NCBI GenBank assembly: GCA_963735375.1
Contig: CAVTKS010000007.1
Coordinates: 10,434 to 74,433, forward strand
Origin: an uncultured Acidimicrobiales bacterium
GTDB lineage: Bacteria; Actinomycetota; Acidimicrobiia; Acidimicrobiales; VFJN01
Direction of reading: 5' to 3'
DNA length: 64,000 nt
Part shown: positions 13,479 to 41,502 of the stretch, piece by piece
Layout: each line of letters begins with the position of its first letter
Position numbering within the stretch: the first letter of the stretch is position 1
Translations under genes and position numbers: made by a program
Notes under the pieces: generated by a model
The model's input: only the letters and a program-made list of their open reading frames with translations
Told to the model about the DNA's origin: nothing
Database searches by the model: none

Positions 13479-13789
13479 CAGTCGAGGGGCTCCAGGTAAA
13501 GGTGGATCGTGCCACCGCACGTCAGCCCGACCGCGAAGGCGTCGTCGTCGCTGTAGCCGAAGGTGACGACCTTGCGCGCGCCGGTGCGCAGGATCTCGAG
13601 CGCCTCGGTGACCACGGCTCCCTCGACGCAGCCTCCCGACACCGAGCCCACCACCTCACCACGCTCGTTGACGGCCATCGCCGCGCCCGGGGACCGTGGG
13701 CCTGACCCATCCAGGTCGACGACGCGGGCGATCGCCACCGCCACCCCCTCGGCGCGCCAGCGGTCGAGGTCGTCCAACAGATCTCTCAT
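13475..13789 (-). CDS. XdhC/CoxI N-terminal domain protein
   Basis: GSGPRSPGAAM, GSVSGGCVEG, AVGLTCGGTI. Confidence 0.85.
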   Translation of the reverse strand: MRDLLDDLDRWRAEGVAVAIARVVDLDGSGPRSPGAAMAVNERGEVVGSVSGGCVEGAVVTEALEILRTGARKVVTFGYSDDDAFAVGLTCGGTIHLYLEPLDW

Positions 13790-14011
13790 GTTCTCCGCTC
13801 CTGGCCTTCGGCCGGGCCGCTCGGGCCACGGTCGCTCTCACGCCCCTCGGGACGCTCCCTCATGCTCCCCGCTCCTGGCCTTCGGCCGGGCCGCTCGGGC
13901 CACGGTCGCTCTCACGCCCTTCGGGACGCTCCCTCATGCTCCCCGCTCCTGGCCTTCGGCCGGGCCGCTCGGGCCACGGTCGCTCTCACGCCCTTCGGGA
14001 CGCTCCCTCAT
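13786..14011 (-). repeat. Three tandem 74-bp intergenic units, each a 25-aa mini-ORF ([25 protein letters not shown]) chained by ATGA overlaps
   Basis: Mini-ORFs 13934-14011, 13860-13937, 13786-13863; the last TGA overlaps the xdhC ATG; CAGGAG SD in each unit. Confidence 0.9.
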
Positions 14012-14018
14012 GTCTGTC

Positions 14019-15143
14019 TCACCTTCCGACCACGTCGGCCAGCGCCTCCAGCGAGGCGATCGAATGGCCCTCGACGAACTCGTCGACGTGCGGCAGGGCG
14101 GCCGCCATACCGCCGGCCAGTGGTGCATAGCCGGGCGACGCCTTGAGCGGGTTGACCCACACGACGCGGTGCGCGACCCGGCGCAGCCGGGCCAGCTCGT
14201 CGCCCAGGACGGCCGGGTCGCCCCGGTCCCACCCGTCGGACAGGATCACGACCACTGCGCCCCGAGCGAGGCCGCGCACGCCCCAACGGTCGTTGAACCG
14301 GCGCATGCCGTCGCCCAGCCGGGTGCCACCGGACCAGTCGACGACCGCGTGGGCGGCCTGACGCAGGGCCTGGTCGGGGTCGTGGGTCGCCAGCTCGCGG
14401 GTGATGCGCGTGACCCGGGTGCCGAGGGCGAACACCTCGACCTGGCCGCGCCTGCGGGCGGCGACCGCGGCGTGCGCGAAGCGCGTGAGCGCCCGGGCGT
14501 AGGGCTCCATCGACCCGCTGACATCGACGAGGACCACCAGCCGGCGGGGCCGCTCCCCCGCCTCCTCGCGGGCTGGGCGCAGCACCTCGCCTCCGGTGCG
14601 CAGCGAGCGCCGGACAGTGCGACGCAGGTCCAGGCTGCCGCGCCCGGCCGGGGCCGGGCGGCGCCGCCGGCTGGGCCGACGAGCGGCGCGCACCCGGAGG
14701 TCGGTCATCAAGCGGTGGGCCTGGGCCAGCTCGTCGGGGGTGCAGGTCGCCAGGTCGCGGTGGCGCAGCACCTCCGTGGCGCTCCACCGCACCGCCTGGA
14801 TGTCCGTCGGTGGCCGCTCGGCACCCGGCTCGTCGTCGGGCGGCGCGGCGGGGTCGTCGTCGGCGTCGAGCTGGATCTCGACCTGCCGGGGCGCGGCCAC
14901 CACCTCGGCCATGCGCAGCCCGCCGAACACGTGGCCGAAGACCTGGTCGTAGGCGGCGATGTCCTCGGGGCGGTGCACCAGCGTGGCCCGGCCCGACCAG
15001 TACATCCCGGTGGCCGACGAGCCGACCGCCGTGAGCGCCCGGGCGTAGGCCACCGTCGCCCCGGTCGGCACCGCGACCCCGGCGCGCCGCAACGCCAGCA
15101 CGACGTCGATCACGATCTCGTCGAGCGCCGCCGCGTCAGGCAC
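14019..15143 (-). CDS. coxE: CoxE-like VWA domain protein
   Basis: LVDVSGSM MIDAS motif, WSGGTRLG, ILSDGWDRG, WVNPL. Confidence 0.85.
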   Translation of the reverse strand: MPDAAALDEIVIDVVLALRRAGVAVPTGATVAYARALTAVGSSATGMYWSGRATLVHRPEDIAAYDQVFGHVFGGLRMAEVVAAPRQVEIQLDADDDPAAPPDDEPGAERPPTDIQAVRWSATEVLRHRDLATCTPDELAQAHRLMTDLRVRAARRPSRRRRPAPAGRGSLDLRRTVRRSLRTGGEVLRPAREEAGERPRRLVVLVDVSGSMEPYARALTRFAHAAVAARRRGQVEVFALGTRVTRITRELATHDPDQALRQAAHAVVDWSGGTRLGDGMRRFNDRWGVRGLARGAVVVILSDGWDRGDPAVLGDELARLRRVAHRVVWVNPLKASPGYAPLAGGMAAALPHVDEFVEGHSIASLEALADVVGR

Positions 15144-16074
15144 TGCGCGCCACCGCCTCGCGCACGAGCGCGTCGATGCCGTGCTCGCGCACCCGCTGGG
15201 CGTCCTCGCGGTACTTGACCACCGACCCGAGGGTGGCATCGGCCGAGCGTTCGTCGAGACCGCCGCGGCTGAGCAGCGACAGCGCCCGCGCCCAGTCGAT
15301 GGCCTCGGCGATGCCCGGGGGCTTGTAGAGCCCGAGGGTGCGGATCTCGCCGACGGCGACGGCCACCTGCCGCGCCAGCTCGCCGTCGACCTCGGGCGCC
15401 CGCAGCCGCACGATGGCGACCTCGCGCTCGACGTCCGGCTGGTCCACCCAGTGGTACAGGCAGCGCCGTTTCAGCGCGTCGTGCACGTCGCGGGTGCGGT
15501 TCGACGTCAGCACCGTCACCGGCGGGACGGTCGCCCGTACGGTGCCCAGCTCGGGGATCGTCACCGCCCAATCGGACAGGAGCTCGAGCAGGAACGCCTC
15601 GAACTCGTCGTCGGCCCGGTCGATCTCGTCGATCAGCAGCACCGGGGGTGGGCGGCCCTCGGGGGTGTACAGGGCCTGCAGCAGCGGCCGGCGCACCAGG
15701 AAGCGCTCGTCGTACAGCTCGTCCTCGAGCGCGTCGACGCCGGCCGCCTCGGCCCGGCCTACAGCCTCGGCGGCGCGGAGGTGGAGCAGCTGGCGGGCGT
15801 GATCCCACTCGAACAGCGCCTGGGCGGCGTCGATGCCCTCGTAGCACTGCAGGCGCACGAGCCGCCCGCCAGTCCAGGCGGCCAACGCCTTGGCCACCTC
15901 GGTCTTGCCCACCCCGGCGTCGCCCTCGAGGAACAACGGTCGCTCCAGCCGCAGGGCGAGGAACACCGCCGTCGCCAGCCCCTCGTCGGCCAGGTAGTCG
16001 TGGGCGGCCAAGCCCGCGACCACGGCATCGACGTGGTCGACGCCCGCAGCGACAGAGGAGGCCTCGTCGGACAT
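15136..16074 (-). CDS. coxD: CoxD-like MoxR AAA+ ATPase
   Basis: LEGDAGVGKT Walker A, LLIDEIDRAD Walker B, HDALKRRC. Confidence 0.9.
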   Translation of the reverse strand: MSDEASSVAAGVDHVDAVVAGLAAHDYLADEGLATAVFLALRLERPLFLEGDAGVGKTEVAKALAAWTGGRLVRLQCYEGIDAAQALFEWDHARQLLHLRAAEAVGRAEAAGVDALEDELYDERFLVRRPLLQALYTPEGRPPPVLLIDEIDRADDEFEAFLLELLSDWAVTIPELGTVRATVPPVTVLTSNRTRDVHDALKRRCLYHWVDQPDVEREVAIVRLRAPEVDGELARQVAVAVGEIRTLGLYKPPGIAEAIDWARALSLLSRGGLDERSADATLGSVVKYREDAQRVREHGIDALVREAVARSA

Positions 16075-16122
16075 GGGCACAAGACTACGAGGCCGGGCTC
16101 GGACACCGGCATGACGCCGCGT

Positions 16123-16953
16123 TCAGGCGCCCGCCGTCTCCAACGCGCGCCGCACCAGGACCTGGGCCAGATGGCGGCGGTACTCCGGCGAGCCGTTGAG
16201 GTCGTCGGGGGGCTCGGTGCCCTCGTCGGCCCGGGCGGCCGCCTCGGCGGCAGCCGAACCGGAGCGCAGAGCATCCTCGACCCCGGCCGCCCGCAGGGGC
16301 TGCGAGCCCATGTTGACCAGCCCCACGCCCGGACCCTCCGACCCGTTCGACAGCACCGCGGACACCCCGACGATCGCCCAGTCCTGGGCGCGGCGGTTGA
16401 ACTTCTCGAACGCCCAGCCCACCCCCGGCAGGGCCGGGACGCGGATCTCGGTGAGCACCTCGTCGGCCGCGAGCGCGGTCTCGAGGAACCCCGTGAAGAA
16501 GTCGTCCGCCGCGATCTCGCGCTCGCCGCCGGCGCCGCGGGCTACCAGCGTCGCCCGTAGCGCCAGCAACGCGGCCGGCAGGTCGGACGCCGGGTCGCCG
16601 TGGGCGACCGACCCACCGATCGTGCCCCGGTGTCGGACCTGGGCATCGCCGATCTGCCCGGCGACGTGGGCCAGGAGCGGCACCTGCTCGCGCAGGACGT
16701 CGGAGGTCTCGAGGTCGCGGTGCCGGGTGAGCGCACCGATGCGCACCGTGCCCGACCCGTCCGTCACGTAGGACAGGTCGCCGATGCGGCCGATGTCGAC
16801 GAGCACCGACGGCGCGGCCAGCCGCAGCTTCATGAGCGGCAGCAGCGAATGCCCGCCGGCGATCAGCTTGGCCTCGTCGCCATGCTCGTTGAGGAGGCCA
16901 ACGGCCTCGTCGACCGACGAAGCCCTCTGGTAGTCGAACGGTGCCGGGATCAC
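16123..16953 (-). CDS. coxM: CODH/xanthine dehydrogenase family medium (FAD) subunit
   Basis: IAGGHSLLPLMKLRLA, QVRHRGTIGGS; GTGA-coupled to the large subunit. Confidence 0.9.
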   Translation of the reverse strand: MIPAPFDYQRASSVDEAVGLLNEHGDEAKLIAGGHSLLPLMKLRLAAPSVLVDIGRIGDLSYVTDGSGTVRIGALTRHRDLETSDVLREQVPLLAHVAGQIGDAQVRHRGTIGGSVAHGDPASDLPAALLALRATLVARGAGGEREIAADDFFTGFLETALAADEVLTEIRVPALPGVGWAFEKFNRRAQDWAIVGVSAVLSNGSEGPGVGLVNMGSQPLRAAGVEDALRSGSAAAEAAARADEGTEPPDDLNGSPEYRRHLAQVLVRRALETAGA

Positions 16954-19364
16954 GACGCCCCCTCCCCTGTCGGCGACGACGCACTTCGTGCGTCTCTGAT
17001 GGCCGCCCACACCCGTTCGGGGTGAGCCGGCATCAGCATGTCGGTGATGCCGAACGGCGCCAGCGCGTCGATCACGGCGTTCATGACCGTCGGTGTCGAG
17101 CCGATTGTGCCGGCCTCGCCGATGCCCTTGACCCCGAGCAGGTTGGTGGGGCTGGGCGTCACCGTGTGGTCGAGCTTGAACGTGGGCACCTCGGCCGCGC
17201 TGGGCACGCAGTAGTCGATCAGGCTGGGGTTGCGCAGGTTGCCGTCGTCGTCGTAGACGGCCTCCTCCCACAGCGCCTGGGCGACGCCCTGGACGATGCC
17301 GCCGTGGAGCTGGCCCTCGACGATCATCGGGTTGACCTGCGGCCCGCAGTCGTCGACGGCTGCGTAGTCACGCAGCTCGACGTGGCCGGTGTCCTCGTCG
17401 ATCTCGACGACGGCCACGTGCGTGCCGAAGGGGAAGACGAAGTTGGGCGGGTCGTAGGTCACCTGCGCCGCCAGGTTGGGCTCGACCCCGTCGGGCAGGT
17501 CGTGGGCGCTGAACGCCTCGAACGCCACCGCCTGCAGCGTCATCGACCTCGTCGGGGTGCCGCGCACCCGCAGCTCGCCGTCGGCGAGCTCGAGGTCGTC
17601 CTCCGCACATTCGAGCTGGTGGGCCGCGATGGTCTTGGCCTTGGTGATGACCTGATCGGTGGCCATCGCCACCGCCACCCCGCCGACGGGCAGCGAGCGA
17701 CTGCCGTAGGTGTCCATGCCCATGGGGCTGATGGCGGTGTCGGAGTGCAGCACCTCGATGTCGTCGGGGTCGACACCCAGCCGGTCGGCCACGATCTGCG
17801 ACCAGGACGTCTCGTGGCCCTGGCCATGTGGTGTGGTGCCGCTGACCACCTGGACCTTGCCGGTGGGGAGCACCCGTACGGTCGCGGCCTCCCATCCGCC
17901 GGCGGCGTACTTCAGCGAGGCGAGCACGCGGCTGGGGGCCAGCCCGCACATCTCGACGTAGGTGGCCACGCCGATGCCCAGGTGCTTCGTGTCGCCGGCG
18001 TCGCGCCGCCGCTGCTGCTCGGCCCGCAGGTCGTCGTAGCCCACCAGCTCGAGCGCGCGATCGAGGGTCGGCTCGTAGTTGCCGGAGTCGTAGGTCAACC
18101 CGGCGATCGAGGCGTACGGGAACTTGTCGGGTGCGATGTAGTTGCGCCGGCGGATCTCGACCCCGTCGACGCCGACGGCGCTGGCCAGCGCATCCATGGC
18201 CCGCTCGACGGCGTAGGTCGCCTCGGGGCGGCCGGCGCCGCGGTACGCGTCGGTGGGCGTGAGCGTGGTGAACACGCCCGTGCACTCGAAGTGGTAGGCG
18301 GGCACGTCGTACACGCCGTGGTAGAGGAAGGCCCCGAGGAGCGGGATGCCGGGCGTGACGAGCTGCAGGTACGCGCCCATGTCGGCCGTCAGGTTGGCCC
18401 GCACGGCCGTGACCTTGCCGTCGGCGTCCGCGGCCAGCTCCATGTGCTGGATCTGCCCCCGGCCCTGGATGGTGGCCACGGCGTTCTCGGTGCGTCCCTC
18501 GGTCCACCGGGTGGGCACCCCCAGCCGGCGGGCGAGGGCCACGCCGATCAGCTCCTCGGCGTAGACGTTCAGCTTCGACCCGAAGCCGCCGCCCACGGCC
18601 GGCGCGATGACCCGCACCTTCTGCTCGGGCACCCCGCACGTCGCCGCGATCATCACCTTGAGGATGTGCGGGATCTGCGTGGCCGAGTAGACGGTCAGCT
18701 CGCCGCCGTAGACGGCGGGCACCACGGCGACGCCGCGTGGCTCCATCGCCACCGGGATGAGCCGCTGCTGGATGTACGTCTCGTCCACCGTGTGGGCAGC
18801 CTCGGCGAACGCCCGGTCGACGGCCTCGGTGTCGGGCGACAACGTCCATGTGTAGCTGCGGTTGGTGCCGAGCCCCTCGTGGATGACCACACGGTCGCTC
18901 GCCGCATCCTCGAGGTCGACCACGGCCTCGAGGGGGTCGTAGTCGACCACCACCGCGTCGACCGCGTCGGCGGCCTGATAGCGGCTGTCGGCCACCACCA
19001 CGGCCACGATGTCGCCCACGAAGCAGGCCTTGTCGCGGGCGACCGGCCAGTGGTCCGGCGCCTTCATGTCGTCGGTGACCGGCCAGGCGCACGGCATGGC
19101 GGCGGCCCACGCATCGTGGAGGTCCTCGCCCGTGATGACGTGGCGCACGCCGGGCATGGCGGCGGCCGCGCTCGTGTCGATGTTGCCGATGCGGGCGTGG
19201 GCGAACGGGCTGCGCACCATGCCCATCCACAGCGCGCCGGGGATCTGCAGGTCATCGACGAAGCGCCCCTCGCCGGTGAGCAGGCGGGCATCCTCCTTGC
19301 GCAGTAGGCGCTGGCCGAACGCGCCGCTACCGGCGTCCGTGCGGGGAGCCTCGGTCGCGGTCAT
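16950..19364 (-). CDS. coxL: Molybdopterin-binding large subunit, form II CoxL-like
   Basis: [17 protein letters not shown] (form II signature), [21 protein letters not shown]. Confidence 0.85.
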
Positions 19365-19441
19365 CGTTCCCCGCTCCTGCTGCTCCGCAGCGGGCCGCTC
19401 GGGCCACGCTCGCTCTCTCGCCCTTCGGGACGCTCGCTCAT
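19361..19441 (-). repeat. Single 77-bp unit of the same repeat: mini-[29 protein letters not shown]
   Basis: ATG overlaps the coxS TGA (19438-19441); TGA overlaps the coxL ATG (19361-19364). Confidence 0.9.
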
Positions 19442-19944
19442 GCCGGCACCTCCTCGCCGGCGGCGGCCAGCACGGCACGCACGATGTTGTGGTAGCCGGT
19501 GCAGCGGCAGAGGTTGCCCTCGAGGCCCAGGCGCACGTCCTGCTCGCTGGGATGCGGGTTCTCCTCGAGCAGGGACACGGCGGCCATGACCATGCCGGGC
19601 GTGCAGAAGCCGCATTGCAGACCGTGCTGCTCGTGGAACGCCTGCTGCATCGGGTGCAGGGCACTGCTCGCGGCGACGCCGTCTCCGTCACCGTGGCCCG
19701 ATGCCGTGGCCGCCAGCCCCTCGATCGTCGTGACGGCTCGGCCGTCGGCCTGCACCGCCAGCATCGTGCACGACTTCACGGACTCGCCGTCGAGCAGGAC
19801 CGTGCAGGCACCGCACGACGAGGTGTCGCACCCCACGTTCGTGCCGGTCAGACCGAGGTCGTCGCGCAGGTGGTGGACCAGGAGCCGTCGAGGTTCGACG
19901 ACGCTCGACCGTTCCTCGCCATTGACGGACAGGGTGATCTCCAC
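19438..19944 (-). CDS. coxS: 2Fe-2S small subunit
   Basis: [31 protein letters not shown]. Confidence 0.9.
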
Positions 19945-19987
19945 GAGCCCTCCCTGGAACGCGCCCGGAGCGCACGACGCCGGGCAC

Positions 19988-22372
19988 CTATGTGACGGGC
20001 GCCACACTATCGCCGGGTGCCGGTGCCGTGGCCGGTGTTTCGCGGCTGATGTCGGCGGCATCCCGGATCGCCCGCCAGACCCGCTCGGGCGTGCATGGCA
20101 TGTCGATGTGCCGCACCCCCAGGTGGGCGACCGCGTCGCACACCGCGTTGTGCACCGCGGGCGTCGAGCCGATGGTGCCCGACTCGCCGATGCCCTTCGC
20201 GCCGAGCGGGTTGACCCAGGTCGGCGTCTCGCTGTCGACGAGCTCGAACGACGGCAGCTCGGCGGCCGACACGACCGCATAGTCGGCGAAGTTGGTGGTC
20301 AGCGGGTTGCCCTCGGCGTCGAACACCACCTGCTCGTACAGCGCCTGGGCCACGCCCTGGGCGATGCCGCCGTGGCGTTGGCCATCGGCCAGCAGCGGGT
20401 TGAGCACGCGCCCGGCGTCGTCGCACGCCACCAGGCGCACCAGGCGGGCATCGCCGGTCTCCGTGTCGACCTCGACGACGGCCACGTGAGCGCCGAACGG
20501 ATAGGTCGGCTGCGTGGTCGTGAAGTCGTGCTCGGCGCTGAACGCCGGTCCGGCGCCGTCGTCGACGGCGGCCACCACGTCGCCCCAGGTCCGACCGACC
20601 GCCGGCGTGCCCACCACATGGAACCGTCCGGCAGCCACGTCGAGGACCACGTCGTCCGGCGCAGCCTCGAGCAGCTCGGCAGCCGCCCGCCGCGCCTGGT
20701 CGACGACCTCGACGACAGCCTGCCGTACGGCGGACCCGCCGAGCTGCAGTGAGCGCGAACCGAAGGTGCCGGTGCCCCGCGCCACCTGGTCGGTGTCTCC
20801 GTGGATCACCCGCACCGCGTCGAGCGGGACGCCCATCTCGTCGGCGACGAGCATCGCGAACGCGGTGGCGAGGCCCTGGCCGTGCGGCGACGTACCCGTG
20901 GCGACGACCACCTCGACCCCGCCCGCGCCGGAGTCGCCCCCGCCAGCGGCGCCGTCGCCGCGGACGACCGGCTGCACGTCGACTCTCGCGAACTCGGACC
21001 CCGCCCGCGGACCGCTCGTCACCTCGACATAGGTCGACACGCCGATGCCGAGCACCCGTCGGTCGCCGGCCTCGCGTCGCCGCCGCTGCTGGGCCCGCAG
21101 GTCCTCGTAGCCGGCGGCCGCCAGCACGCGTTCGAGCGCCGCCGGGAAGTCGCCGCAGTCGTAGGTCGCGCCCGTGGGGGTGACGTGCGGCCCGTCGAAG
21201 CGCGGCACCAGGTTGCGCCGCCGCACCTCCGCGGGATCGAGGCCAGCCTCGGCGGCGAACAGGTCGACCGCCCGCTCGAGGGCCGCCGTCGCCTCCGGCC
21301 GGCCCGCACCCCGGTACGAGCCGACGGGGGTGGTGGGGGTGACCACGACCCGGGCCGAGGACGTGACCGTCGGGATGGCGTAGGTGCCCGCCGCCATCGA
21401 GCGCGTGAGCCGGGGCAGGAAGGCCCCCATCGACGGGTAGGCGCCGGCGTCCTGCACGATGCCCAGGTGGTAGGCCTCGATGGTGCCGTCGGACCGGCCC
21501 CCGATGGTGACGTCGTGCACCTGGGCACGGCCGTGCACCATGCCGACCATGTTGTCGGTGCGCGTCTCGACCCAGCGCACGGGGCGGCCGCACCGCCGCG
21601 CCAGCCAACCGAGCAGCACGTCCTCCGGGTGGCCGCCGATCTTGGCGCCGAAGCCGCCGCCCACGTCAGGCGCGATCACCTGCACGTCGGACCGGTCGAG
21701 GCCGTAGGCAGCGGCGAGGGCCCACTGCAGGCCGTGGGCGTTCTGCGTCGAGCACCACACGACCAGCCGCCCGTCGACCCACGCGGCCGCCGAGGAACGC
21801 ACCTCCAGCGGACAGGCGGCGAGCCGCTGGTTGACGACGCGCTGCCGGACCACGATCTCGCACCCGTCGGGCCCGCCGGGCGCCGCTGCGCCCGCGGCGT
21901 CGCCGAAGGCGCCGACCAGGTTGGTGCCCACATCCGGGAACAGGACAGCCCCGTCCGACAGGGCGACGACCGGGTCGACCGCCACCGGCAGGGGCTCGTA
22001 GTCGACCGCGACCAGCTCGGCCGCGTCGGCGCCCTGGTCGGATCGCTCGGTCAACACGACCGCGACCGGCTCGCCCACGAACCGCACGCGGTCGACGGCC
22101 AGGTACGGCCGGGCCATCGCCTCGTTCGTGACGCCGGGGATGGCCGGCAGGTCGATCTCGGCGCCCGTCACCACGTCGACCACGCCGGGCTGCGATCGGG
22201 CGTCGGCGACGTGGACCGCCGTGATCCGCGCGTGCGCGATGGTCGACCGCACGTAGGTGGCATGGACGGCGCCCTCGAGTCGGACGTCGTGCAGGTCGGC
22301 CGTGTAGGTGCCCCCGGCGGTCAGCAGCCGCGGGTCCTCGACGCGCACCACGCGCGTACCGAGGATGCTCAC
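19988..22372 (-). CDS. Second molybdopterin-binding large subunit (xanthine dehydrogenase family, form II-like)
   Basis: [34 protein letters not shown]. Confidence 0.85.
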
Positions 22373-22379
22373 CGTGCGG

Positions 22380-22610
22380 TCAGCCGAGCATGAGCGACAG
22401 CGCCACCACGGAGAACGCCCAGACGAGGGCCACCACCACGGTGATGCGGTCGAGGTTGCGCTCCATGACGGTGGACCCCATGGCGCTGGCCCCCATGCCG
22501 CCACCGAACATGTCGGACAGGCCGCCGCCCTTGCCGCTGTGCAGCAGCACGAGGACGATCATGATGAGCGACGCGGCGACGTTGAGCGCGGCGGTGATGG
22601 CGGTGAGCAC
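22380..22610 (-). CDS. secG: Preprotein translocase subunit SecG
   Basis: LVLLHSGKGGGLSDMFGGG..ERNLDRIT; two TM helices. Confidence 0.92.
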   Translation of the reverse strand: MLTAITAALNVAASLIMIVLVLLHSGKGGGLSDMFGGGMGASAMGSTVMERNLDRITVVVALVWAFSVVALSLMLG

Positions 22611-31176: not shown

Positions 31177-31182
31177 GCGCCC

Positions 31183-33199: not shown

Positions 33200-34071
33200 T
33201 TGTCGACGTCCCGGTGCAGCACGCCCACGCGCTGCCCGTCGGCCCGGAGGCGCCTGGCCATCTCCTCGGCGATGGCCACCGATCGGTGGCGGCCACCCGT
33301 GCATCCCAACGCGATCGTGAGGTACGCCTTGCCCTCGGCCACGTACGCCGGCAGCAGCTGTTCGAGCAGGGTCTCGAGGTTGTCGAGGAACTGCCCGGCC
33401 GCCGGCTGCCCCAGCACGAAGTCCCGCACCGGCACGTCCAGGCCGGTCAACGGGCGCAGCTCGTCGACCCAGTGGGGGTTGGGCAGGAACCGGCAGTCGA
33501 ACACCAGGTCCGCGTCGAGCGGCAGGCCGTTCTTGTAGCCGAACGACAGGAGCGTGGTCTGCATCGTCGGCTCGGACTCGTCGCCGCCGAACAGCGTGTG
33601 CATGCGCCGCCGTAGCTCGTGCACGTTCAGCTCGCTCGTGTCGACGACCACGTCGGCCTCGGCCTTGACCGGCTCGAGCAGGAGGCGCTCGCGCTCGATG
33701 GCCGGGCCCAGGTGGCCGGACCCGGCCGCGGCGTCGCCCTCGTCGCCCGACAGCGGGTGGCGACGACGCGAGCTCTCGTACCGACGGACCAGCGTGTCGG
33801 TCGACGCCTCGAGGAACAGCACTCGTACCCGGGCTCCCGTCGACCGCAGCCACGCGAGCGTGGGCAGGATCTCGTCCTGGTAATGGCCGGTGCCCATGAC
33901 CAGCGCCACGCGCCCCACCTGTGAGCCGGGCGTCTGCGCCAGCTCGACCACCTTGGGGACCAGCTCGGGCGGCAGGTTGTCGATGACGAACCACCCGAGG
34001 TCCTCGAGGTCATCGGCCGCGAGGCTGCGCCCCGCACCCGACAACCCCGTGATCACGACGAACTCACCCAT
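33196..34071 (-). CDS. rapZ: RapZ/YvcJ P-loop nucleotide-binding protein
   Basis: ITGLSGAGRS, IDNLPP, RRRHPL, FDCRFLPNP, GCTGGRHRSV. Confidence 0.92.
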   Translation of the reverse strand: MGEFVVITGLSGAGRSLAADDLEDLGWFVIDNLPPELVPKVVELAQTPGSQVGRVALVMGTGHYQDEILPTLAWLRSTGARVRVLFLEASTDTLVRRYESSRRRHPLSGDEGDAAAGSGHLGPAIERERLLLEPVKAEADVVVDTSELNVHELRRRMHTLFGGDESEPTMQTTLLSFGYKNGLPLDADLVFDCRFLPNPHWVDELRPLTGLDVPVRDFVLGQPAAGQFLDNLETLLEQLLPAYVAEGKAYLTIALGCTGGRHRSVAIAEEMARRLRADGQRVGVLHRDVDK

Positions 34072-34108
34072 ACGACGTCAAGGCTACGGCCCCGCCGATG
34101 GACGGCAC

Positions 34109-34288
34109 TCGGGACGCTCGCTCAGTGCTTTCCGCTCTTGTCGCCTTCGGCGTCGGGCCGCTCGGGCCACGCTCGCTCTCTCGCCCTTCGGGACGCTCGC
34201 TCAGTGCTTTCCGCTCTTGTCGCCTTCGGCGACGGGCCGCTCGGGCCACGCTCGCTCTCTCGCCCTTCGGGACGCTCGCTCAGTGCTT
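34109..34288 (-). repeat. Two full 79-bp units plus a partial unit of the same repeat; no ATG and frame not kept
   Basis: TGA at 34280, 34201 and 34122 (period 79); units begin CTGA. Confidence 0.88.
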
Positions 34289-35027
34289 CTCGGCCCGCAG
34301 GAGCAGCAGGCGCGGGATCGTCGCTGCGTCCTCGTACTGCGGGGCGAGCGCCAGGAAGCGGGCCGGGGGTGCCGGCTCGAGCATGCGGGTGACGTACAGG
34401 CCGCGCTCGGCCAGCGAGTTCACGTAACGGCTCAGCGGGCGGTGGAAGAAGGGCAGGCGCACGCCGGCGTCGACCTCCTCGACCGACACGCCCTCGCTGA
34501 GGTACGGGCCGACCCGCCAGTACTGCTCCGGCGGGTCGAGCACCTGGTCGTCGATCCAGCCGCTGCCGGGCGTCTGGAACAGCGGGTGATTGACGAACAT
34601 CACGAACCGGCCTCCGGGACGCAGGACGCCGCGACACCTCGTCGAGGGCGCCGTCGAGGTCAGCGAGGTGCTCGAGGACCAGGCAGCTCACCACGGCGTC
34701 GAACCATCCCCCGACCAGCGGCAGCTCGGTGGCCGAGGCCCGGGCGTACGCCACGCCTCCGCCCCGCCGACCGGCCTCGAGGATCTGCGCGGCGGAGGCG
34801 TCGACCCCCACCACGTGGCGGGCGCCGCCCGAGGCTGCCAGCCGGGCGACCTGTCCCTCGCCGCACCCCAGGTCGAGGACGCGGGCCGCGCCGGCCAGGT
34901 GGCGGGCGGCCAGCGGCAGGATCTGCTCGGCGTACTCGACGTCGGCGCCGCGGGTGAACTCGTCCTGCCACCAGCCCGCGTGGCGCTCCCACACGGCGGC
35001 GGTGTCGAGCGCCTCGTCCTCGCTCAC
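34280..35027 (-). CDS. Class I SAM-dependent methyltransferase, frameshift ~34630
   Basis: VLDLGCGEG, VVGVDAS, FDAVVSCLVLEH; continues as FVNHPLFQTPGSGW in the next frame. Confidence 0.8.
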
Positions 35028-35104
35028 GTCTTCCGCTCTCGGCCTGCGGCCGGGCCGCTCGGGCCACGCTCGCTCTGCTCGCTCACGTCGGGACGCTCGC
35101 TCAC
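35024..35104 (-). repeat. Single 77-bp unit: mini-[29 protein letters not shown]
   Basis: GTG overlaps the uvrC TGA; TGA overlaps the methyltransferase GTG (GTGA at both ends). Confidence 0.88.
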
Positions 35105-36978
35105 GCCGTCCCCCTTCCCACCCGGTCGCCGTGGATCTTGCCGTAGACGGCGAGCGCCACGTCGTCGGGCAGCCAGGACAGCGCCCGCAGGTCCTCGAGC
35201 GACGCCTGCTTCACCGCCGCGACCCCGCCCAGCTCCTTGGTCAGGCGCTTCTTGCGGGTCGGTCCCAGGCCCCTGATGTCGTCGAGCACCGACTTGGTCA
35301 TGCGCTTCCCTCGGAGCTGGCGGTGGTACGAGATCGCGAAGCGGTGGGCCTCGTCACGGATGCGTTGGAGCATGTACAGCCCTTCGGACCCCCGCGCCAC
35401 CCGCACCGGGTCGGACATGCCGGGGACGTAGACCTCCTCGAACCGCTTGGCCAGCGAGGCCACCGGGATCTCCTCGTCGAGGCCCAGGTCCTCGAGCACG
35501 CGCAACGCCACGTTGAGCTGCCCCTTGCCGCCGTCGACCAGCAGGAGCTGGGGAGGGTACGAGAACTTGCCCGACCGCTCGCCCACCGGCAGGGCGCGCT
35601 CGTCGATGTAGGCGGTCAGGCGCCGGGTCAGCACCTCCTCCATGGCCGCGAAGTCGTCGTTGCCCGCCACCGTGCGCACCTTGAACCGCCGGTAGTCGGA
35701 CTTCTTGGGCAGGCCGTCCTCCATGACCACCATGGACCCCACGTAGTCGGTGCCCTGGATGTGGCTCATGTCGTAGCACTCGATCCGCAGGGGGGCCTCG
35801 GGCAGCCCGAGGGCGTCCTGCAGCTCGTTGAGCGCCTTCGCCCGGGCGTTGTGGTCGCTCGCCCGGCGCAACCGGTGGCGGGTGAACTCCTCGGACGCGT
35901 TCCGGGTGACCGTGGCCTGCAGCTCGCGCTTGGCGCCCCGCTGGGGCACCCGCACGTCGACCCGCGAGCCGCGCAGCAGCGTGAGCCAGTCGGCATAGAG
36001 CTCGGGGTCGTCGGGCTCGGTGGGCACCAGCACCGCCTTGGGCACGCCGAGCGGTGGGTCGTCGTACAGGCCCTCGAGCACGTCGCCCACCAGCTCGCCG
36101 GGCGCCAGGTCCTCGACCTTGTCGACCACGAACCCCTTGCGGCCGACCACCCGGCCCTTGCGGACGAAGAAGACCTGGACGGCCGCCTCGAGGTCGTCCT
36201 CGGCCATGCCGACGACGTCGAGGTCCTCGTTGCGCTCGGCCACCATCTGCTGGCGCTCGATGGCCTTGCGCACGCTGGTCAGCCGATCGCGCAGCCGGGC
36301 CGCCCGCTCGTACTCCAGCGTCGACGCGGCCTCGCGCATCTGCTCCTCGAGCCGGTGCACCACCGTGTCGGTGTCGCCGTCGAGGAAGTCGATCAGGTCG
36401 GCGACCAGGCGGTCGTAGGTCTCGCGGTCCACCTCGCCCACGCACGGGCCGGAGCACTTCTCGATGTGGAACAGCAGGCAGGGCCGGCCGAGCCGCTCGT
36501 GGCGCCCGAACTTGTTGTCGCTGCACGTGCGCAGTGGGAACGTGCGCAGCAGCAGGTCGAGCGTCTCGCGGATGGCGTAGGCGTGGCCGTACGGACCGAA
36601 GTAGCGCACACCTTTGCGCTTGCGGCCCCGCATGACCGTCGGACGGGGCCACTCGTCACCGACCGTGACCGCCAGGAACGGGTAGCTCTTGTCGTCGCGC
36701 AGCCGGATGTTGAACCGCGGCTTGTGCTGCTTGATGAGGCTGTACTCGAGCATGAGCGCCTCGACCTCGTTGCGGACCTGGATCCACTCGACGGTCTCGG
36801 CGGTGGCCACCATGCTCGCCGTGCGGGGCGGCAGGTTGCGGGGGGCCTGGAAGTAGTTCGAGAGCCGCTGGCGGAGCGAGCGCGCCTTGCCGACGTAGAT
36901 GACGCGGCCCTCGCGGTCCTTGAACTGGTAGGAGCCGGGGGCGTCGGGGATCGTGCCGGCCGGCGGTCGTTGCACCAC
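35101..36978 (-). CDS. uvrC: Excinuclease ABC subunit C
   Basis: GIY-YIG (PGSYQF..IYVGKA), RDDKSYP, RIECYDMSH, LLVDGGKGQ, RDEAHRFA, HhH. Confidence 0.97.
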   Translation of the reverse strand: MVQRPPAGTIPDAPGSYQFKDREGRVIYVGKARSLRQRLSNYFQAPRNLPPRTASMVATAETVEWIQVRNEVEALMLEYSLIKQHKPRFNIRLRDDKSYPFLAVTVGDEWPRPTVMRGRKRKGVRYFGPYGHAYAIRETLDLLLRTFPLRTCSDNKFGRHERLGRPCLLFHIEKCSGPCVGEVDRETYDRLVADLIDFLDGDTDTVVHRLEEQMREAASTLEYERAARLRDRLTSVRKAIERQQMVAERNEDLDVVGMAEDDLEAAVQVFFVRKGRVVGRKGFVVDKVEDLAPGELVGDVLEGLYDDPPLGVPKAVLVPTEPDDPELYADWLTLLRGSRVDVRVPQRGAKRELQATVTRNASEEFTRHRLRRASDHNARAKALNELQDALGLPEAPLRIECYDMSHIQGTDYVGSMVVMEDGLPKKSDYRRFKVRTVAGNDDFAAMEEVLTRRLTAYIDERALPVGERSGKFSYPPQLLLVDGGKGQLNVALRVLEDLGLDEEIPVASLAKRFEEVYVPGMSDPVRVARGSEGLYMLQRIRDEAHRFAISYHRQLRGKRMTKSVLDDIRGLGPTRKKRLTKELGGVAAVKQASLEDLRALSWLPDDVALAVYGKIHGDRVGRGTA

Positions 36979-37099
36979 CCTGCTGAGGGTAGAGGGTGCC
37001 GCCTGCTGTCAGATCTGCTCGTCCGGTTCCGGTTGTCAGATCTGCGCATGGAGTTCGTAAACTGCCGTTCAAGCCGGCCCGGCATTCCGGCTGCATATC

Positions 37100-37180
37100 G
37101 GTTCCGGGGACGACAACCCCGTGGGAGAGGCGACCGGGCTGTCCCCACCGTCCACAAACCGGAGCCACCTCGACGGAGGT
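37100..37180 (+). ncRNA. Candidate NAD+-I (nadA motif)-like riboswitch with SD-sequestering hairpin
   Basis: GGACG/CGTCC stem, ACAACCCC bulge, GTGGG/CCCAC stem, outer GGTTCCGG/CCGGAGCC; ACCTC-GACG-GAGGT hides the SD; directly 5' of nadA. Confidence 0.6.
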
Positions 37181-37188
37181 ACCACCCC

Positions 37189-38307
37189 ATGCTTCGGCTC
37201 CAGACCCCGCTCGACGAGCGGTACACCGCAGCGTCCTCAGACGACCTGGCCCCGCGCATCGCGGCGGCGAAGGCCGCGCTGGGCGACCGTTTGTTCATCC
37301 TCGGCCACCACTACCAGCGCGACGAGATCATCCGCTGGGCTGACGCCCGTGGCGACTCGTACCGCCTCTCGGTGCTGGCGCAGGAACGGCCAGAGGCCGA
37401 GCACATCGTGTTCTGTGGCGTGCACTTCATGGCCGAGTCGGCCGACATCCTGACCGGCGACCACCAGACGGTGGTCCTGCCCGACCTCAACGCCGGCTGC
37501 TCGATGGCCGACATGGCCGACATCGACGAGGTCGAGGAGGCCTGGGAGAGCCTGGCCGGCGTGACCGACATCGACCGGGTCGTGCCGATCACGTACATGA
37601 ACAGCTCGGCAGCCATCAAGGCGTTCGTCGGCCGCCACGGCGGCGCGGTGTGCACCTCCACCAACGCCCGCGCCGTCCTCGACTGGGCGCTCGGCGATGG
37701 CCCGGGCTCGTCGGGTGGGCAGGGCGACCAGGTGCTGTTCTTCCCCGACCAGCACCTGGGCCGCAACACCGGCATCGCCATGGGCTACGGGCTCGACGAC
37801 ATGCGCGTCTGGGATCCCCGCAAGGACCTGGGCGGCCTCACCGAGCGTGACTGCAAGGAGTCGACCTTCCTGCTGTGGCGCGGGCATTGCTCGATCCACC
37901 AGCGGTTCCGCCCCGAGCAGATCGCCGCGTTCCGGACCGAGCATCCCGACGGCATCGTGATCGTCCACCCCGAGGTGCCCCACGAGACCGTGCAGGTCGC
38001 CGACCAGGTCGGCTCGACCGACTACATCATCCGCGCCGTGGCCGATGCGCCCACCGGATCGACCATCGCGGTCGGCACCGAGGTCCACCTGGTCAACCGG
38101 TTGGCCCAGGAGAACCCCGACAAGGCCGTGGTGTCGCTCGACCCGCTGATCTGCCCGTGCTCCACCATGAACCGCATCGACGAGCCCCACCTGGCCTGGG
38201 TGTTGGACGAGCTGATCGAGGGCCGCGTCGTCAACCCCATCAGGGTCGACGACGCCACCGCCGAGTGGGCGCGGGTCGCGCTCCAGCGCATGCTCGACAT
38301 CACCTGA
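37189..38307 (+). CDS. nadA: Quinolinate synthase
   Basis: ILGHHYQRDE, FCGVHFMAESA, AGCSMAD, TYMNSSA, FFPDQHLG, HCSIH, VHPE, CPCSTMNRI. Confidence 0.95.
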   Translation: MLRLQTPLDERYTAASSDDLAPRIAAAKAALGDRLFILGHHYQRDEIIRWADARGDSYRLSVLAQERPEAEHIVFCGVHFMAESADILTGDHQTVVLPDLNAGCSMADMADIDEVEEAWESLAGVTDIDRVVPITYMNSSAAIKAFVGRHGGAVCTSTNARAVLDWALGDGPGSSGGQGDQVLFFPDQHLGRNTGIAMGYGLDDMRVWDPRKDLGGLTERDCKESTFLLWRGHCSIHQRFRPEQIAAFRTEHPDGIVIVHPEVPHETVQVADQVGSTDYIIRAVADAPTGSTIAVGTEVHLVNRLAQENPDKAVVSLDPLICPCSTMNRIDEPHLAWVLDELIEGRVVNPIRVDDATAEWARVALQRMLDIT

Positions 38308-38315
38308 CCGGCGAG

Positions 38316-40667
38316 TCACTCGCGCTGGCCGCGTCGCTCCGGCTCGCGACCCTGCGGTTGGGTCGGGCGCGGGCCCAGATGCACCGGCGTGACCGGGCGC
38401 TCGACGTCGTCGTCGCCGAGCGAGAGCTCCTTGCCCTCGTGCCAGATGGTCAGCGGCGGGCCGGCGAACCGGTGGTAGCTCACCGTCGTGCCGTCCGTCT
38501 CGACCCGCACGCCACTGCCCCGGTACTGCACCCGGAAGCTCAGCCGCCCGATGCCGCTGGGCAGGCGCGGCGCGAAGCACAGCCGCCCGTCGCGCGCCCG
38601 CATGCCGCCGAACCCCGCGACCAGCGCCGTCCAGGCGCCGGCGAGCGAGGCCATGTGGAGGCCGTCGCGGGTGTTGTGGTTGCGGTCCTCGAGGTCCATC
38701 AAGGCGGCCTCGGCCAGGTAGTCGTACGCCAGCTCGAGATGCCCCAGCTCGGCCGCGACGACCGCCTGCGTTGCCGCGGACAGGGACGAGTCACGCACGG
38801 TCAGCGCCTCGTAGTACTGGAAGTTGCGCTCCTTCTCGTCGGGCGTGAACGCGTCGCCGCGCAGGTGCAGCGCCAGCACCAGGTCGGGCTGCTTGACCAC
38901 CTGCTTGCGGTACAGGTCGAAGTACGGGAAGGACAGCAGCAGCGGGTACTGGTCCGGGCGGGTGCCGGCGAAGTCCCACACGGCGTGCTCGGTGAAGCCC
39001 TCGCTCTGGGGGTGCACCCCCAGCTCGTCGTCGTACGGGATGACCATCGCGTCGGCTGCGTCCCGCCACGACGCCATCTCCTCGGTGTCGACACCCAGGC
39101 CCTCGGCCAGATCAGGGTGGCGGGCGGCGACCTCTGCCGCTTCCCGCAGGTTCTGCTGGGCCATGAGGTTCGTGTAGACGTTGTTGTCGGCGATGGCGCT
39201 GTACTCGTCAGGGCCGGTCACGCCGTCGATGCGGTACCGTCCCTTGCGGTCGTGGTGACCCACGCTGCGCCACAGCCGTGCGGTCGAGACCAGCAGGTCG
39301 AGACCGACGTCGCGCTCGAAGTCCTCGTCCTGGGTCGCGTCCAGGTAGCGGACGACTGCGTCGGCGATGTCGGCGTTGATGTGGAACGCAGCGGTGCCCG
39401 CGGGCCAGTAGCCCGACGACTCGCGGCCCCGGATCGTGCGCCAGGGGAAGGCGGCCCCGTCGAGGCCCAGCTCGTGCGCCCGCTCCTGGGCGACAGGCAT
39501 CGTCAACTTGCGCCAGGTCAGGGCCGCCGCCGCCGCGTCGGGCTTGGTGTAGGTCAGCACGGGGAGGACGAACGTCTCTGTGTCCCAGAAGGTGTGGCCG
39601 TCGTACCCGGGGCCGGTGAGCCCTTTGCCCGGGATCGGCCGCTGCTCGGCCCGCGCGCCGGCCTGCAGGATGTGGAACAGGCCGAACCGCACGGCCTGCT
39701 GTACCTCGGCGTCGCCCTCGAGCTCGACGTCGGCGCCCGCCCAGAAGTCGTCGAGGTAGGCACGTTGCTCCGCCAGCAGCCCGTGCCACCCGGTCAACCG
39801 CGCCGCGGCCAGGGCGGCGACGACCTGGTCGTGCAGCGCCGGCCGGGTGCGCTGGCTCGACCATCCGTAGGCCAGGAACTTGACGATCCGCAGCCGCTCC
39901 CCCGGCCCGAGCCGGGTGGCGATCGTGAACCGGCAGGTGTCCGGCGAGCTGTCGATGTCGAGCTCGGTGTTCGACGGCCCCTCGACGACGTGTCGCATCC
40001 CCGAGGCGACCCGCAGCCCGCTCTGGCGCGTTCGATGCACCATCAGTGCCTCTGTGCCCGACGCGCTGTGCTCCTCGATCTCGAGGGGGCTCTCGAGCGC
40101 AGCCGCCGTGCGGGGGTCGGGGCCAAGGTCCGGCAGCGCCTCGTTGGCCACCAGCTCCGACTGGACCACGACGCGCAGTGACCGGTCGATCGGCTCGACC
40201 TCGAAGCAGATCGCCGCCACCGCCCGCTGTGTGAGCGACACCAGCCGCGTCGAGTTGACCCGGATGCCGTCGCCCGCCGGCGAGTGCCACTCGACCTGGC
40301 GCTCGAGAGTGCCCGCTCGTAGGTCGAGGCGGCGTGTGTGCGAGTCGAGCGTGCCGTAGCGGACGTCGAACGGCTCGTCGTCGACCAGCAGGCGGAACAG
40401 CTTGCCGTTGGTGACGTTGATGACCGTCTGACCCGACTCGGGATAGCCGTAGCCCTTCTCGCCGTGCGGCAGCGGCCGCGACTCGTAGACCGAATTGAGG
40501 TACGTGCCCGGCACGCCGTGGGGGTCGCCCTCGTCGAGGTTGCCCCGCAGACCGATGTGGCCGTTGGACAGGGCGAACACCGACTCGGTGCTTGCCAGCT
40601 CATCGAGGTGCAGCACCTCCTCGGTGACGAACCACGGCTCGACGGCGAAGTTCCGGTGCTCGCTCAT
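38316..40667 (-). CDS. GH65 glycoside phosphorylase (maltose/trehalose/kojibiose phosphorylase family)
   Basis: FALSNGHIGLRG, KGLTGPGYDGHTFWDTE, GVTGPDEY, VVKQPD, DSSLS. Confidence 0.92.
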   Translation of the reverse strand: MSEHRNFAVEPWFVTEEVLHLDELASTESVFALSNGHIGLRGNLDEGDPHGVPGTYLNSVYESRPLPHGEKGYGYPESGQTVINVTNGKLFRLLVDDEPFDVRYGTLDSHTRRLDLRAGTLERQVEWHSPAGDGIRVNSTRLVSLTQRAVAAICFEVEPIDRSLRVVVQSELVANEALPDLGPDPRTAAALESPLEIEEHSASGTEALMVHRTRQSGLRVASGMRHVVEGPSNTELDIDSSPDTCRFTIATRLGPGERLRIVKFLAYGWSSQRTRPALHDQVVAALAAARLTGWHGLLAEQRAYLDDFWAGADVELEGDAEVQQAVRFGLFHILQAGARAEQRPIPGKGLTGPGYDGHTFWDTETFVLPVLTYTKPDAAAAALTWRKLTMPVAQERAHELGLDGAAFPWRTIRGRESSGYWPAGTAAFHINADIADAVVRYLDATQDEDFERDVGLDLLVSTARLWRSVGHHDRKGRYRIDGVTGPDEYSAIADNNVYTNLMAQQNLREAAEVAARHPDLAEGLGVDTEEMASWRDAADAMVIPYDDELGVHPQSEGFTEHAVWDFAGTRPDQYPLLLSFPYFDLYRKQVVKQPDLVLALHLRGDAFTPDEKERNFQYYEALTVRDSSLSAATQAVVAAELGHLELAYDYLAEAALMDLEDRNHNTRDGLHMASLAGAWTALVAGFGGMRARDGRLCFAPRLPSGIGRLSFRVQYRGSGVRVETDGTTVSYHRFAGPPLTIWHEGKELSLGDDDVERPVTPVHLGPRPTQPQGREPERRGQRE

Positions 40668-40744
40668 CGCTCTCCGCTCATGCTGCTCCGCAGCGGGCCG
40701 CTCGGGCCACGCTCGCTCTCACGCCCTCCGGGACGCTCGCTCAT
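40664..40744 (-). repeat. Single 77-bp unit: mini-[29 protein letters not shown]
   Basis: ATGA overlaps at both ends (beta-PGM stop, GH65 start); 22-bp direct repeats at 40658-40679 and 40735-40756. Confidence 0.9.
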
Positions 40745-41502
40745 CGCTCTCCGCTCTCCGGCCCCGGGGCGTCGAGGAGCTCGCTCAGGTCCTCGACCAC
40801 GATGTCGGCGCCGTGCGCTCGCAGCCCGGCGGCCTGGCCCACCCTGTCGACGCCCACCACCAGCCCGAAGCCACCCGCCCTCCCGGCCTCGACACCGGCC
40901 AGCGCGTCCTCGAACACCGCGGCGGCACCTGCGTGCAACCCCAACGCAGCGGCGCCGGCGAGGAACGTGTCGGGCGCCGGCTTGCCCGCCAGGCCCTGCT
41001 CGGCGGCGACCAGACCGTCGATGCGCACCTCGAACAGGTCGGCGATGCCGGCGGAATCGAGGACCTGTGCCGTGTTGGCGCTCGACGACACGACCGCCGT
41101 GTGCAGTCCCGCAGCCCGCACGGCACGCACGTACCGCACCGAGCCGTCGAACACCTCGACCCGATCGTCGTCGAGCAGCCGGAGCACCAGCTCGTTCTTG
41201 GCGTTGCTCAGGCCGTGGACCGTCGGCGCCCGCGCCGGGTCGTCGGGTGTGCCCTCCGGCAGCTCGATGCCGCGCGCACGGAGGAACGAGCGTGTCCCGT
41301 CGAGGCGCGGCCGCCCGTCGACAAAGCGGTCGTAATCGGCAGGGGTGAAGGGCCGCAGGTCCTCGCCGGCGTGCGGGGCCCGAGCGCCGAGGAAGTTGTC
41401 GAACATCTCCGCCCAGGCGCGGGCGTGGACGCTGGCGGTGCGCGTGAGCACGCCGTCGAGGTCGAAGAGGCAGCCGGTCACTCCGGGGGGAAGTCCGAGC
41501 AC
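40741..41502 (-). CDS. Beta-phosphoglucomutase-family HAD hydrolase
   Basis: LFDLDGVLT, VSSS, GKPAPD, FEDALAG; paired with GH65. Confidence 0.88.
   Translation of the reverse strand: MLGLPPGVTGCLFDLDGVLTRTASVHARAWAEMFDNFLGARAPHAGEDLRPFTPADYDRFVDGRPRLDGTRSFLRARGIELPEGTPDDPARAPTVHGLSNAKNELVLRLLDDDRVEVFDGSVRYVRAVRAAGLHTAVVSSSANTAQVLDSAGIADLFEVRIDGLVAAEQGLAGKPAPDTFLAGAAALGLHAGAAAVFEDALAGVEAGRAGGFGLVVGVDRVGQAAGLRAHGADIVVEDLSELLDAPGPESGER

Follow-up and report, generated by a model that had tools for sequence, protein, structure and literature searches.

A family of short repeats occupies gene junctions in an uncultured genus of Acidimicrobiales (class Acidimicrobiia), soil actinobacteria, where its units are registered on the tetranucleotide NTGA (N, any nucleotide) that ends one gene or starts the next. 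The repeat was detected in a stretch of 64,000 nucleotides (nt), hereafter the window, which corresponds to positions 10434-74433 of contig C7 of genome G000 (4.84 Mb, 72% G+C, 7 contigs, 91% complete). From its sequence geometry, we consider it quite likely that the family consists of short, non-autonomous, copy-and-paste and tandemly expandable relay repeats, in which translation of a mini open reading frame (ORF) carried by the unit, followed by re-initiation, would keep the downstream gene coupled to the upstream one.

A repeat finder run on the window returned a single family, with 8 copies at 13782, 13856, 13930, 19360, 34123, 34202, 35020 and 40663. The 8 units, of 74-83 nt each, are spread over five places, and all of them lie on the minus strand, like the genes that flank them, in agreement with the initial annotation, which had reported the repeat at five junctions in the direction of transcription. 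The 15-nt core GGCCCGAGCGGCCCG occurs 8 times in the window, always on the minus strand, against 0.21 occurrences expected, and none of 100 shuffles reached 8. Pfam assigned the flanking genes to CoxE and XdhC_CoxI, Fer2_2 (coxS-like) and CoxL, UvrC and a class-I methyltransferase, and a HAD hydrolase and GH65. At the coxS/coxL, uvrC/methyltransferase and HAD/GH65 junctions, the unit was found to be, as previously described, an ORF of 81 nt that overlaps through NTGA, by 4 nt at each end, the preceding gene's stop and the following gene's start. For the triple array between coxE and xdhC the relay holds on the downstream side, where three ORFs are chained by ATGA and the last TGA (13788-13786) overlaps the XdhC_CoxI ATG (13789-13787), and fails on the upstream side, where instead of an overlap a gap of 7 nt separates the first ATG from the preceding coxE stop. 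Followed from the head of this array, the chain consists of ORFs of 78, 78, 78, 315 and more than 450 nt. The array between the methyltransferase gene and rapZ, listed in the initial annotation as a further place of the family, has a period of 79 nt (3n+1) and CTGA heads that hold no start codon, and its units are not relay ORFs. The first TGA of this array (34282-34280) is the methyltransferase stop, and the array closes the uvrC-methyltransferase unit, upstream of a promoter-like TAGCCT box of rapZ.

To extend these observations to the whole genome, an iterated nhmmer profile was run on G000, yielding 67 hits at 53 loci, some of which share the 3' half only and represent other sub-families. 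When both head and core were required, 32 arrays were counted, with ATGA (24), GTGA (4) or CTGA (4) heads, up to 3 units per array and 38 parsed units. All 32 have the orientation of the gene that they touch at its stop or start. Taking ORFs longer than 450 nt as long, 23 of the 28 arrays with a start-codon head reach such an ORF by a chain of -4 or -1 stop/start overlaps and 3 run into one in frame, so that 26 of 28 lead by overlaps or in frame into a long ORF. The two remaining heads open, respectively, a mini-ORF that ends 10 nt beyond the downstream ATG and a chain whose second small ORF reaches a few codons beyond the next start. On the upstream side, where genes were called by codon-position G+C, the preceding gene stops on the head's own TGA in 18 of the 28 arrays and 2-25 nt before the head in another 5, the last 5 being without a same-strand gene end nearby. 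All four CTGA arrays begin on the stop of the upstream gene. Insertion into coupled operons, as first proposed, describes a frequent situation and not the whole range, which also includes leaderless starts, start-less 3' ends of genes and in-frame N-terminal extensions.

The length of the units depends on whether they are flanked by start codons. Units were parsed from the head to the NTGA of the tail, leaving out five G000 units without a parsable tail. Among those with start codons at both ends, length was a multiple of 3 in 30 of 32 (57, 63, 72, 75, 78, 81 or 84 nt), versus 0 of 6 for the units without start codons (79 or 83 nt), and thus the dependence on length modulo 3 noted in the window extends to the genome. 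A second set was drawn from metagenome-assembled genomes (MAGs), and comprised 80 loci (L037-L116) selected by the core alone among the matches listed, of at least 110 stretches, in an exact-pattern scan of species genomes; after arrays near a locus end or beside N were dropped, 77 arrays were analysed. In these loci 38 of 45 start/start units are multiples of 3, as is one of the two units without start codons, and a further 36 units have no NTGA tail, many of them being fusions or -1 overlaps. Because copies inherit their length, we also counted distinct architectures, defined as 5' length + hairpin length + tail length: 19 of 27 start/start architectures are multiples of 3 (binomial p 9e-5 versus one third, a value that overstates independence given the shared ancestry of the copies); of the 8 exceptions, 7 are singletons. 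In the 5' part, too, lengths are multiples of 3, and hairpin and tail add up to 28, 31 or 34 nt in the multiple-of-3 units, in the combinations 11+17, 13+18, 14+17, 11+20, 13+15, 13+21 and 14+20, and to 29 or 33 nt in CTGA units. Length changes are therefore compensated between the parts of the unit, and only where a start codon makes the frame matter. The initial annotation had described the uvrC unit of the window as differing by +3 and -3 from the coxS unit; the +3 is indeed a change in the 5' module, and the supposed -3 is made up of -2 nt in the hairpin and -1 nt in the tail.

Congeneric genomes, compared through the neighbouring proteins, revealed empty sites at four of the five window junctions (bare ATGA, GTGA or CTGA) and a variable copy number at the fifth, the direct ATGA or GTGA overlap that had been expected of empty-site orthologues being found. 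The coxS/coxL site is empty in G017 and G002, which show a bare ATGA overlap (..CATGAC..). A 75-nt variant occupies it in G008 and the 81-nt unit in G000, and in both genomes the site reads ATGA[unit]ATGA; the insert thus has ATGA at both ends. The uvrC/methyltransferase junction is an empty GTGA overlap in G002 and is filled in G017, and the 3' end of the methyltransferase gene shows an empty CTGA in G002 and one variant unit in G017. Between coxE and xdhC the number of units is three in G000 and one in G008; G017 has a shortened unit there, and G002 has no repeat unit. The HAD/GH65 site is empty in G017 (ATGA) and in G002 (GTGA), and contains other repeats in G008. In this last locus (L149), several of these short repeats, with GTGAGCGAGCG heads and CCATGA ends, follow one another and keep the frame open from HAD into GH65 (1002 aa). 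Unrelated 39-nt ATGA..ATGA mini-ORFs were also observed where other genomes hold the repeat, at the coxE/xdhC junction of G002 (L162) and in G000 near C6:1,170,900; they may be footprints or independent relay ORFs.

The comparison was also made in the reverse direction. The downstream flank of 65 of the 77 MAG arrays has a match in G000, and a core was present within 200 nt upstream of that match in 5 of the 65 and absent in 60. Empty here means without a core within 200 nt; core-less or degenerate copies are present at 4 or more of these 60 sites (as near C6:909470 and C7:620687), and some matches may be paralogues. Clean empty sites of G000 include TACCGT-7 nt-ATGACG near C1:125,490, TAGCCT-6 nt-ATGACC near C2:169,600 and an ATGA junction near C5:354,140.

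Of the MAG arrays, 70 have a start-codon head, with 42 relay chains into a long ORF, 21 in-frame fusions and 7 other outcomes. Four of these 7 fell short of the 450-nt cut: two in-frame ORFs measure 444 nt each, and two relays lead to genes of 327 and 408 nt. For the 37 heads without a nearby same-strand gene end, a TAnnnT box was present 5-10 nt upstream in 26, compared to 3 of 37 in a control window 25-30 nt upstream. In actinobacterial promoters, a TAnnnT box at a spacing of 5-10 nt would place the transcription start at the head ATG and produce leaderless mRNAs. The boxes vary from locus to locus (TAGCGT, TACCGT, TAAGGT and others) and so belong to the host. In the fusions, the ATG of the tail is often ACG or missing, and the element encodes an N-terminal extension of the protein (e.g. 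L082). Four genes of G000 (C1:508181, C5:200471, C6:338560 and C6:909536) start with the head of the element (ATGAGCGAGCGTCC, MSERP..), the rest of the unit being absent. The solo head at C1:508181 may be the remnant of an in-frame deletion, its orthologue L046 carrying a full unit.

An alignment of 34 distinct G000 units showed a modular organisation. The head NTGAGCGAGCGTCC is followed by a 5' module, the core GTGGCCCGAGCGGCCCG, a short hairpin of variable stem (hairpin 3), the tail and the terminal NTGA. The 5' module exists in two main versions, CGAAGGGCGAGAGAGCGAGC, which forms a small hairpin, and GCAATGCAGCGAGC, with longer versions in other genomes. The tail, (C)A(A/G)GAGCGGG plus 4-8 nt, is purine-rich and similar to a Shine-Dalgarno (SD) sequence; the SD-like unit ends pointed out in the window are thus conserved, G66, G68, C69 and G70 of ..GAGCGG.. 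being invariant in the 34 units. Unit lengths range over 54-108 nt, with 72, 78, 81 and 96 nt as the commonest. Terminal inverted repeats were absent from the three units examined, in which inverted pairs of at least 6 nt amounted to one internal pair, a palindrome of the flank and a palindrome of the stem.

The pairing of hairpin 3 is maintained in spite of changes in its sequence. From 46 distinct segments (162 occurrences, one genome left out), 41 form stems of 4-6 bp with varied sequences and mostly GNA loops, whereas a stem of at least 4 bp was formed by 22% of the shuffles (maximum 37%). RNAalifold on a MAFFT alignment missed this hairpin because two stem classes are out of register. Pair counting on an alignment fitted to the model gave more both-sided stem changes than in shuffles, with the reservation that such an alignment leans towards the model; as it still mis-registers the GGCC class, stems were counted directly in each segment. 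At the protein level, 29 distinct 81-nt relay units differ from the consensus by 45 synonymous and 73 non-synonymous codons, and their differences outside the hairpin and the ends fall on codon positions 1, 2 and 3 in numbers of 29, 40 and 46, without a third-position excess. The variable sites are two loops, the A/G of the SD-like stretch and the spacer before the ATG. It is the core and the hairpin that are conserved, and not the peptide.

Other repeat families were also observed in G000. The second has only core, hairpin and tail in common with the first; its 5' module, GAGGCCGAGCCGACAGGCGAGGCC, is a different one that in most cases starts at a stop codon or immediately behind it, and its 3' extension (CAGCGACCGTTCG..) is conserved. 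The third is made up of tandem arrays of about 68 nt (C2:238984-239096 and C7:183231-417).

These data can be accommodated in the following mechanism. A unit would settle on an NTGA that serves as the stop of a gene and/or the start of the next, leaving the tetranucleotide at both ends, and copies would survive only where translation stays unbroken. Ribosomes ending the upstream gene, or starting on a leaderless mRNA, would translate the ATG- or GTG-headed mini-ORF, stop at the TGA within the terminal ATGA and re-initiate on its ATG with the help of the SD-like tail. By this re-initiation the downstream gene would remain translationally coupled, and the insertion would probably be without polarity, as suggested in the initial annotation. 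Termination-reinitiation is established for -4 overlaps in general, according to the review literature that describes mycobacterial interspersed repetitive units, MIRUs (PMC3184786, PMC12548453). More tentatively, the repeat could be an independently evolved, translation-neutral mobile element that is copied into NTGA sites by means of its core and GNA-loop hairpin, and that gives rise to a graded series of operon relays, leaderless relays by which a leaderless gene becomes coupled, and N-terminal extensions exonised in dozens of proteins, with array length tuning the efficiency of coupling. If this were true, relay-ORF repeats would represent a general, recurrently invented lifestyle of selfish DNA in gene-dense, overlap-rich genomes.

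Several results weigh against the relay interpretation. Copies headed by CTG, with lengths that are not multiples of 3, are found upstream of genes and keep their tail with its ATG (L073, L074 and L109), which implies that the SD-like tail alone may suffice for initiation. Seven of the 45 start/start units from MAGs are not multiples of 3, some being parsing errors at -1 overlaps and some perhaps real, and to these is added the common descent of the copies indicated above. Folding of whole units was no better than that of shuffles (z from -0.44 to +0.91). The Y1 transposase profile PF01797 had no match in six genomes (G000 and 5 congeners, 73-95% complete), the control search detecting it in 6 of 14 known genomes. 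Finally, the public sequencing runs contained at most a share of 0.14 of the sampled words of 18900-20100; in two DNA and two RNA runs, short contig pieces came from relatives with many repeat-borne joints, and depth over the repeat was uninterpretable.

The CTG-headed copies would be expected if the element were just a portable ribosome-binding site, whose tail supplied an SD-like stretch and a start for fresh initiation while translation of the mini-ORF was irrelevant, since such copies are untranslatable from the head and precede genes that start on the ATG of the tail. The same explanation is favoured by the ..A(A/G)GAGCGG.. tail being the most invariant purine-rich part of the unit. We nevertheless regard it as unlikely, because it accounts neither for the multiple-of-3 lengths of start-flanked units as opposed to CTGA units, nor for the mutual offset of hairpin and tail lengths, nor for the 21 of 70 MAG copies that run in frame into the gene without a start in the tail. 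Somewhat less probable still is that a structured nucleic-acid signal is primary and the ORF a by-product, whether as a hairpin that stabilises the mRNA or directs its processing, as a site bound by a protein, or as a hairpin of single-stranded DNA acting in replication or recombination. The pairing of hairpin 3 kept across different stems, its excess of both-sided changes and the conservation of the core, but not of the peptide, between families of the order are what such a signal would produce. Against it, the folding energy of the whole unit equals that of shuffles, Rfam gave only tRNA for the window at gathering scores and 0 matches for seven element loci at E up to 1, and no terminator-like site was found in window positions 33900-41000. 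Moreover, a structural signal by itself does not predict the frame constraint or the exact registration on NTGA, and a structural role may well coexist with the relay, for instance as a part needed for copying.

A function of the mini-ORF product, as a small peptide or as a regulatory leader, appears highly improbable. In its favour, the N-terminal 17 residues are similar in most copies, but non-synonymous differences outnumber synonymous ones without third-position bias, and the hairpin part encodes LRSS, AEGQ, AAGR or SPKAT, with indifference to the peptide. As the variable positions are loops and spacer, conservation follows the nucleic acid. A last alternative, which seems to us improbable, slightly more so than the structured signal, concerns ancestry: the element would be a true, highly diverged descendant of the mycobacterial MIRU family instead of an independent invention. 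Both hosts belong to the phylum Actinomycetota, and the units resemble MIRUs as described in the two reviews in their range of sizes, in being both dispersed and tandem, in their orientation, in the -4 overlaps and in the duplicated tetranucleotide. No sequence likeness accompanied this resemblance in the genomes that were searched. Covariance model R1 had no match in 150 other genomes of the phylum, and five phylum genomes with the mycobacterial PE family, used as a stand-in for the MIRU consensus, gave a single hit (E 0.027), inside a coding region and attributable to chance. In 800 kb of the most PE-rich of them, TRF identified five non-PE arrays of 53-58 nt, three of which are one dispersed family and all of which, judging by their look, may be MIRUs in the strict sense. 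The nhmmer profile gave a best E of 6.4 on those 800 kb, and the arrays match G000 only by chance words of 19-23 nt. The initial annotation, which gave the MIRU sequence as different, is supported to the extent that no likeness between mycobacterial repeats and the element was found in the PE-bearing stand-in genomes, and that no Rfam family matches it.

The relay interpretation can now be placed among known systems. In the two reviews, of 2011 and 2025, MIRUs are units of 40-100 bp, present in 40-50 copies within operons, whose ORFs overlap the adjacent genes and whose filled sites show tetranucleotide direct repeats (PMC3184786, PMC12548453); they are further called "mobile" and inserted "at start codons" with -4 spacing, expression being little disturbed (the same reviews, citing Supply et al. 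1997). Each feature of MIRU geometry described there recurs here, as the initial annotation had anticipated in speaking of the same logic: a comparable unit size (54-108 nt versus about 40-100 bp), tens of dispersed copies that are also tandem and variable in number (32 arrays in G000, and three, one, a shortened or no unit at coxE/xdhC), a position between operon genes in gene orientation, an internal ORF that overlaps the upstream stop and is chained into a long ORF, and a tetranucleotide direct repeat at the filled versus empty coxS/coxL sites. Given this logic, shared with MIRUs as the reviews describe them, and no sequence likeness detected in the stand-in genomes, we class the family as MIRU-like in its working and not as part of the MIRU sequence family. 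It differs in its host, a genus of Acidimicrobiales and not Mycobacterium, and presents as new features a modular unit whose 5' modules are interchangeable and whose hairpin covaries, the frame-keeping offset of indels, frequent placement at leaderless starts, in-frame N-terminal fusions and start-less CTGA arrays at 3' ends of genes.

With REP/BIME sequences that have RAYT (Y1) transposases and with small elements derived from IS200/IS605, the family shares short GC-rich hairpin repeats between operon genes and strand-specific insertion by a short target; it differs in that no Y1 transposase was found in G000 and 5 congeners, in not being a simple palindrome and in its start/stop-registered ORFs. 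Miniature inverted-repeat transposable elements are likewise small, dispersed and unable to move on their own, leave occupied and unoccupied sites and are bordered by a short duplication; the family differs from them in that it has no terminal inverted repeats, is strictly oriented to genes and commonly forms tandem arrays. Rickettsia palindromic elements are short repeats located in coding sequences, where they persist without breaking the reading frame; the 21 in-frame fusions resemble them, with the difference that fusion is here one outcome beside stop/start relays.

To our knowledge, the only textbook example of a repeat concealed in operons by a coupled mini-ORF has for decades been that of MIRUs, the idea being drawn mostly from sequence geometry in one genus. 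A second family, in another class of Actinomycetota and without detectable sequence likeness, adds independent comparative support for selection on the reading frame, founded on the offsetting indels and on the contrast between start-flanked and start-less units, and would extend the relay idea to leaderless mRNAs and in-frame protein extensions. The many natural pairs of filled and empty sites could be used to study termination-reinitiation. For the annotation of Acidimicrobiales MAGs, the repeat is a warning of mis-called starts, spurious small ORFs and repeat-derived N-termini.

Model R1 matched 16 of 18 genomes of the same genus and 2 of the 12 from other families drawn alongside. In a sample of 150 further genomes from the order, 13 had a match with an E-value of 1e-5 or lower (12 of 149 without G060). 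The diverged relatives at the level of the order keep head, core, a differently paired hairpin, tail and ATGA ends. Among the matches listed, the 80 core loci come from entries titled as Acidimicrobiales, Acidimicrobiia, Actinomycetota or unnamed-bacterium MAGs, plus one Bifidobacterium breve MAG. The contig with this last title (L044) carries a full CTGA-headed unit in G+C-rich sequence and is probably mis-binned. Plasmid and phage collections contained nothing similar to the element, the core and head strings had no occurrence in a literature search, and literature searches on MIRU-like repeats and on Acidimicrobiales repeats gave nothing relevant among the matches listed. Spread by a Y1 transposase, with NTGA as target and subterminal hairpins, was considered as a candidate and dropped after PF01797 was not found in the six genomes. 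Many downstream genes begin with the head sequence ATGAGCGAG, and there are also solo heads and tails absorbed into neighbouring genes, all of which hints at a spread of copies by recombination or slippage through short homologies.

Table. Coordinates of the repeat arrays, their parts and related features (window positions unless a G000 contig is given).
Feature	Position	Strand	Description
Triple array, period 74	13786..14011	-	78-nt ORFs with ATG at 14011, 13937 and 13863, chained by ATGA
Single 81-nt unit, coxS-like/coxL	19361..19441	-	Upstream stop 19440-19438; coxL ATG 19364-19362; ATGA at both ends
Hairpin 1 of the coxS/coxL unit	19419-19432	-	
Core of the coxS/coxL unit	19391-19405	-	
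Hairpin 3 of the coxS/coxL unit	19379-19391	-	Variable stem
Tail of the coxS/coxL unit	19365-19378	-	SD-like
Start-less array	34109..34283	-	Two complete units of period 79, then the initial 17 nt of a third; CTGA heads
Single 81-nt unit, uvrC/methyltransferase	35024..35104	-	uvrC stop 35103-35101; GTG 35027-35025; GTGA at both ends
Single 81-nt unit, HAD hydrolase/GH65	40664..40744	-	HAD stop 40743-40741; GH65 ATG 40667-40665; ATGA at both ends
Tail-like 3' end of the HAD gene	40745..40759	-	Last HAD codons repeat the element tail GGAGAGCGGAGAGCG ahead of ATGA
Second-family loci (among others)	G000 C3:223818-223862, C4:199598-199641, C5:147875-147935, C6:98712-98755, C6:603046-603090, C7:530831-530873		

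The tail-like end of the HAD gene is probably the remnant of a further unit absorbed into the C-terminus of the protein, which differs in the congeners with empty HAD/GH65 sites. In the methyltransferase gene (34280-35027, minus strand) the reading frame shifts near 34680, the N-terminal domain being in the frame of the GTG at 35027 and the C-terminal part ending at TGA 34282-34280, a change that reflects either a frameshifted pseudogene or an assembly error. Genome G008 has no methyltransferase gene upstream of rapZ. The start ATG of rapZ (34071-34100, minus strand) is preceded by TAGCCT plus 9 nt, a leaderless-type arrangement kept in G017 (L150). Two genes for CoxL-type large subunits (17059-19022 and 20127-22081), 3068 nt apart and with 72-76% identity (repeat families D5, D7, D9 and D15), belong to tandem paralogous clusters of molybdo-hydroxylases. 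A protein-coding repeat with a period of about 129-144 nt (family D2, ..GTCGTTGATGCC..) is located at the right end of the window (62579-63301) and is unrelated to the relay repeat.

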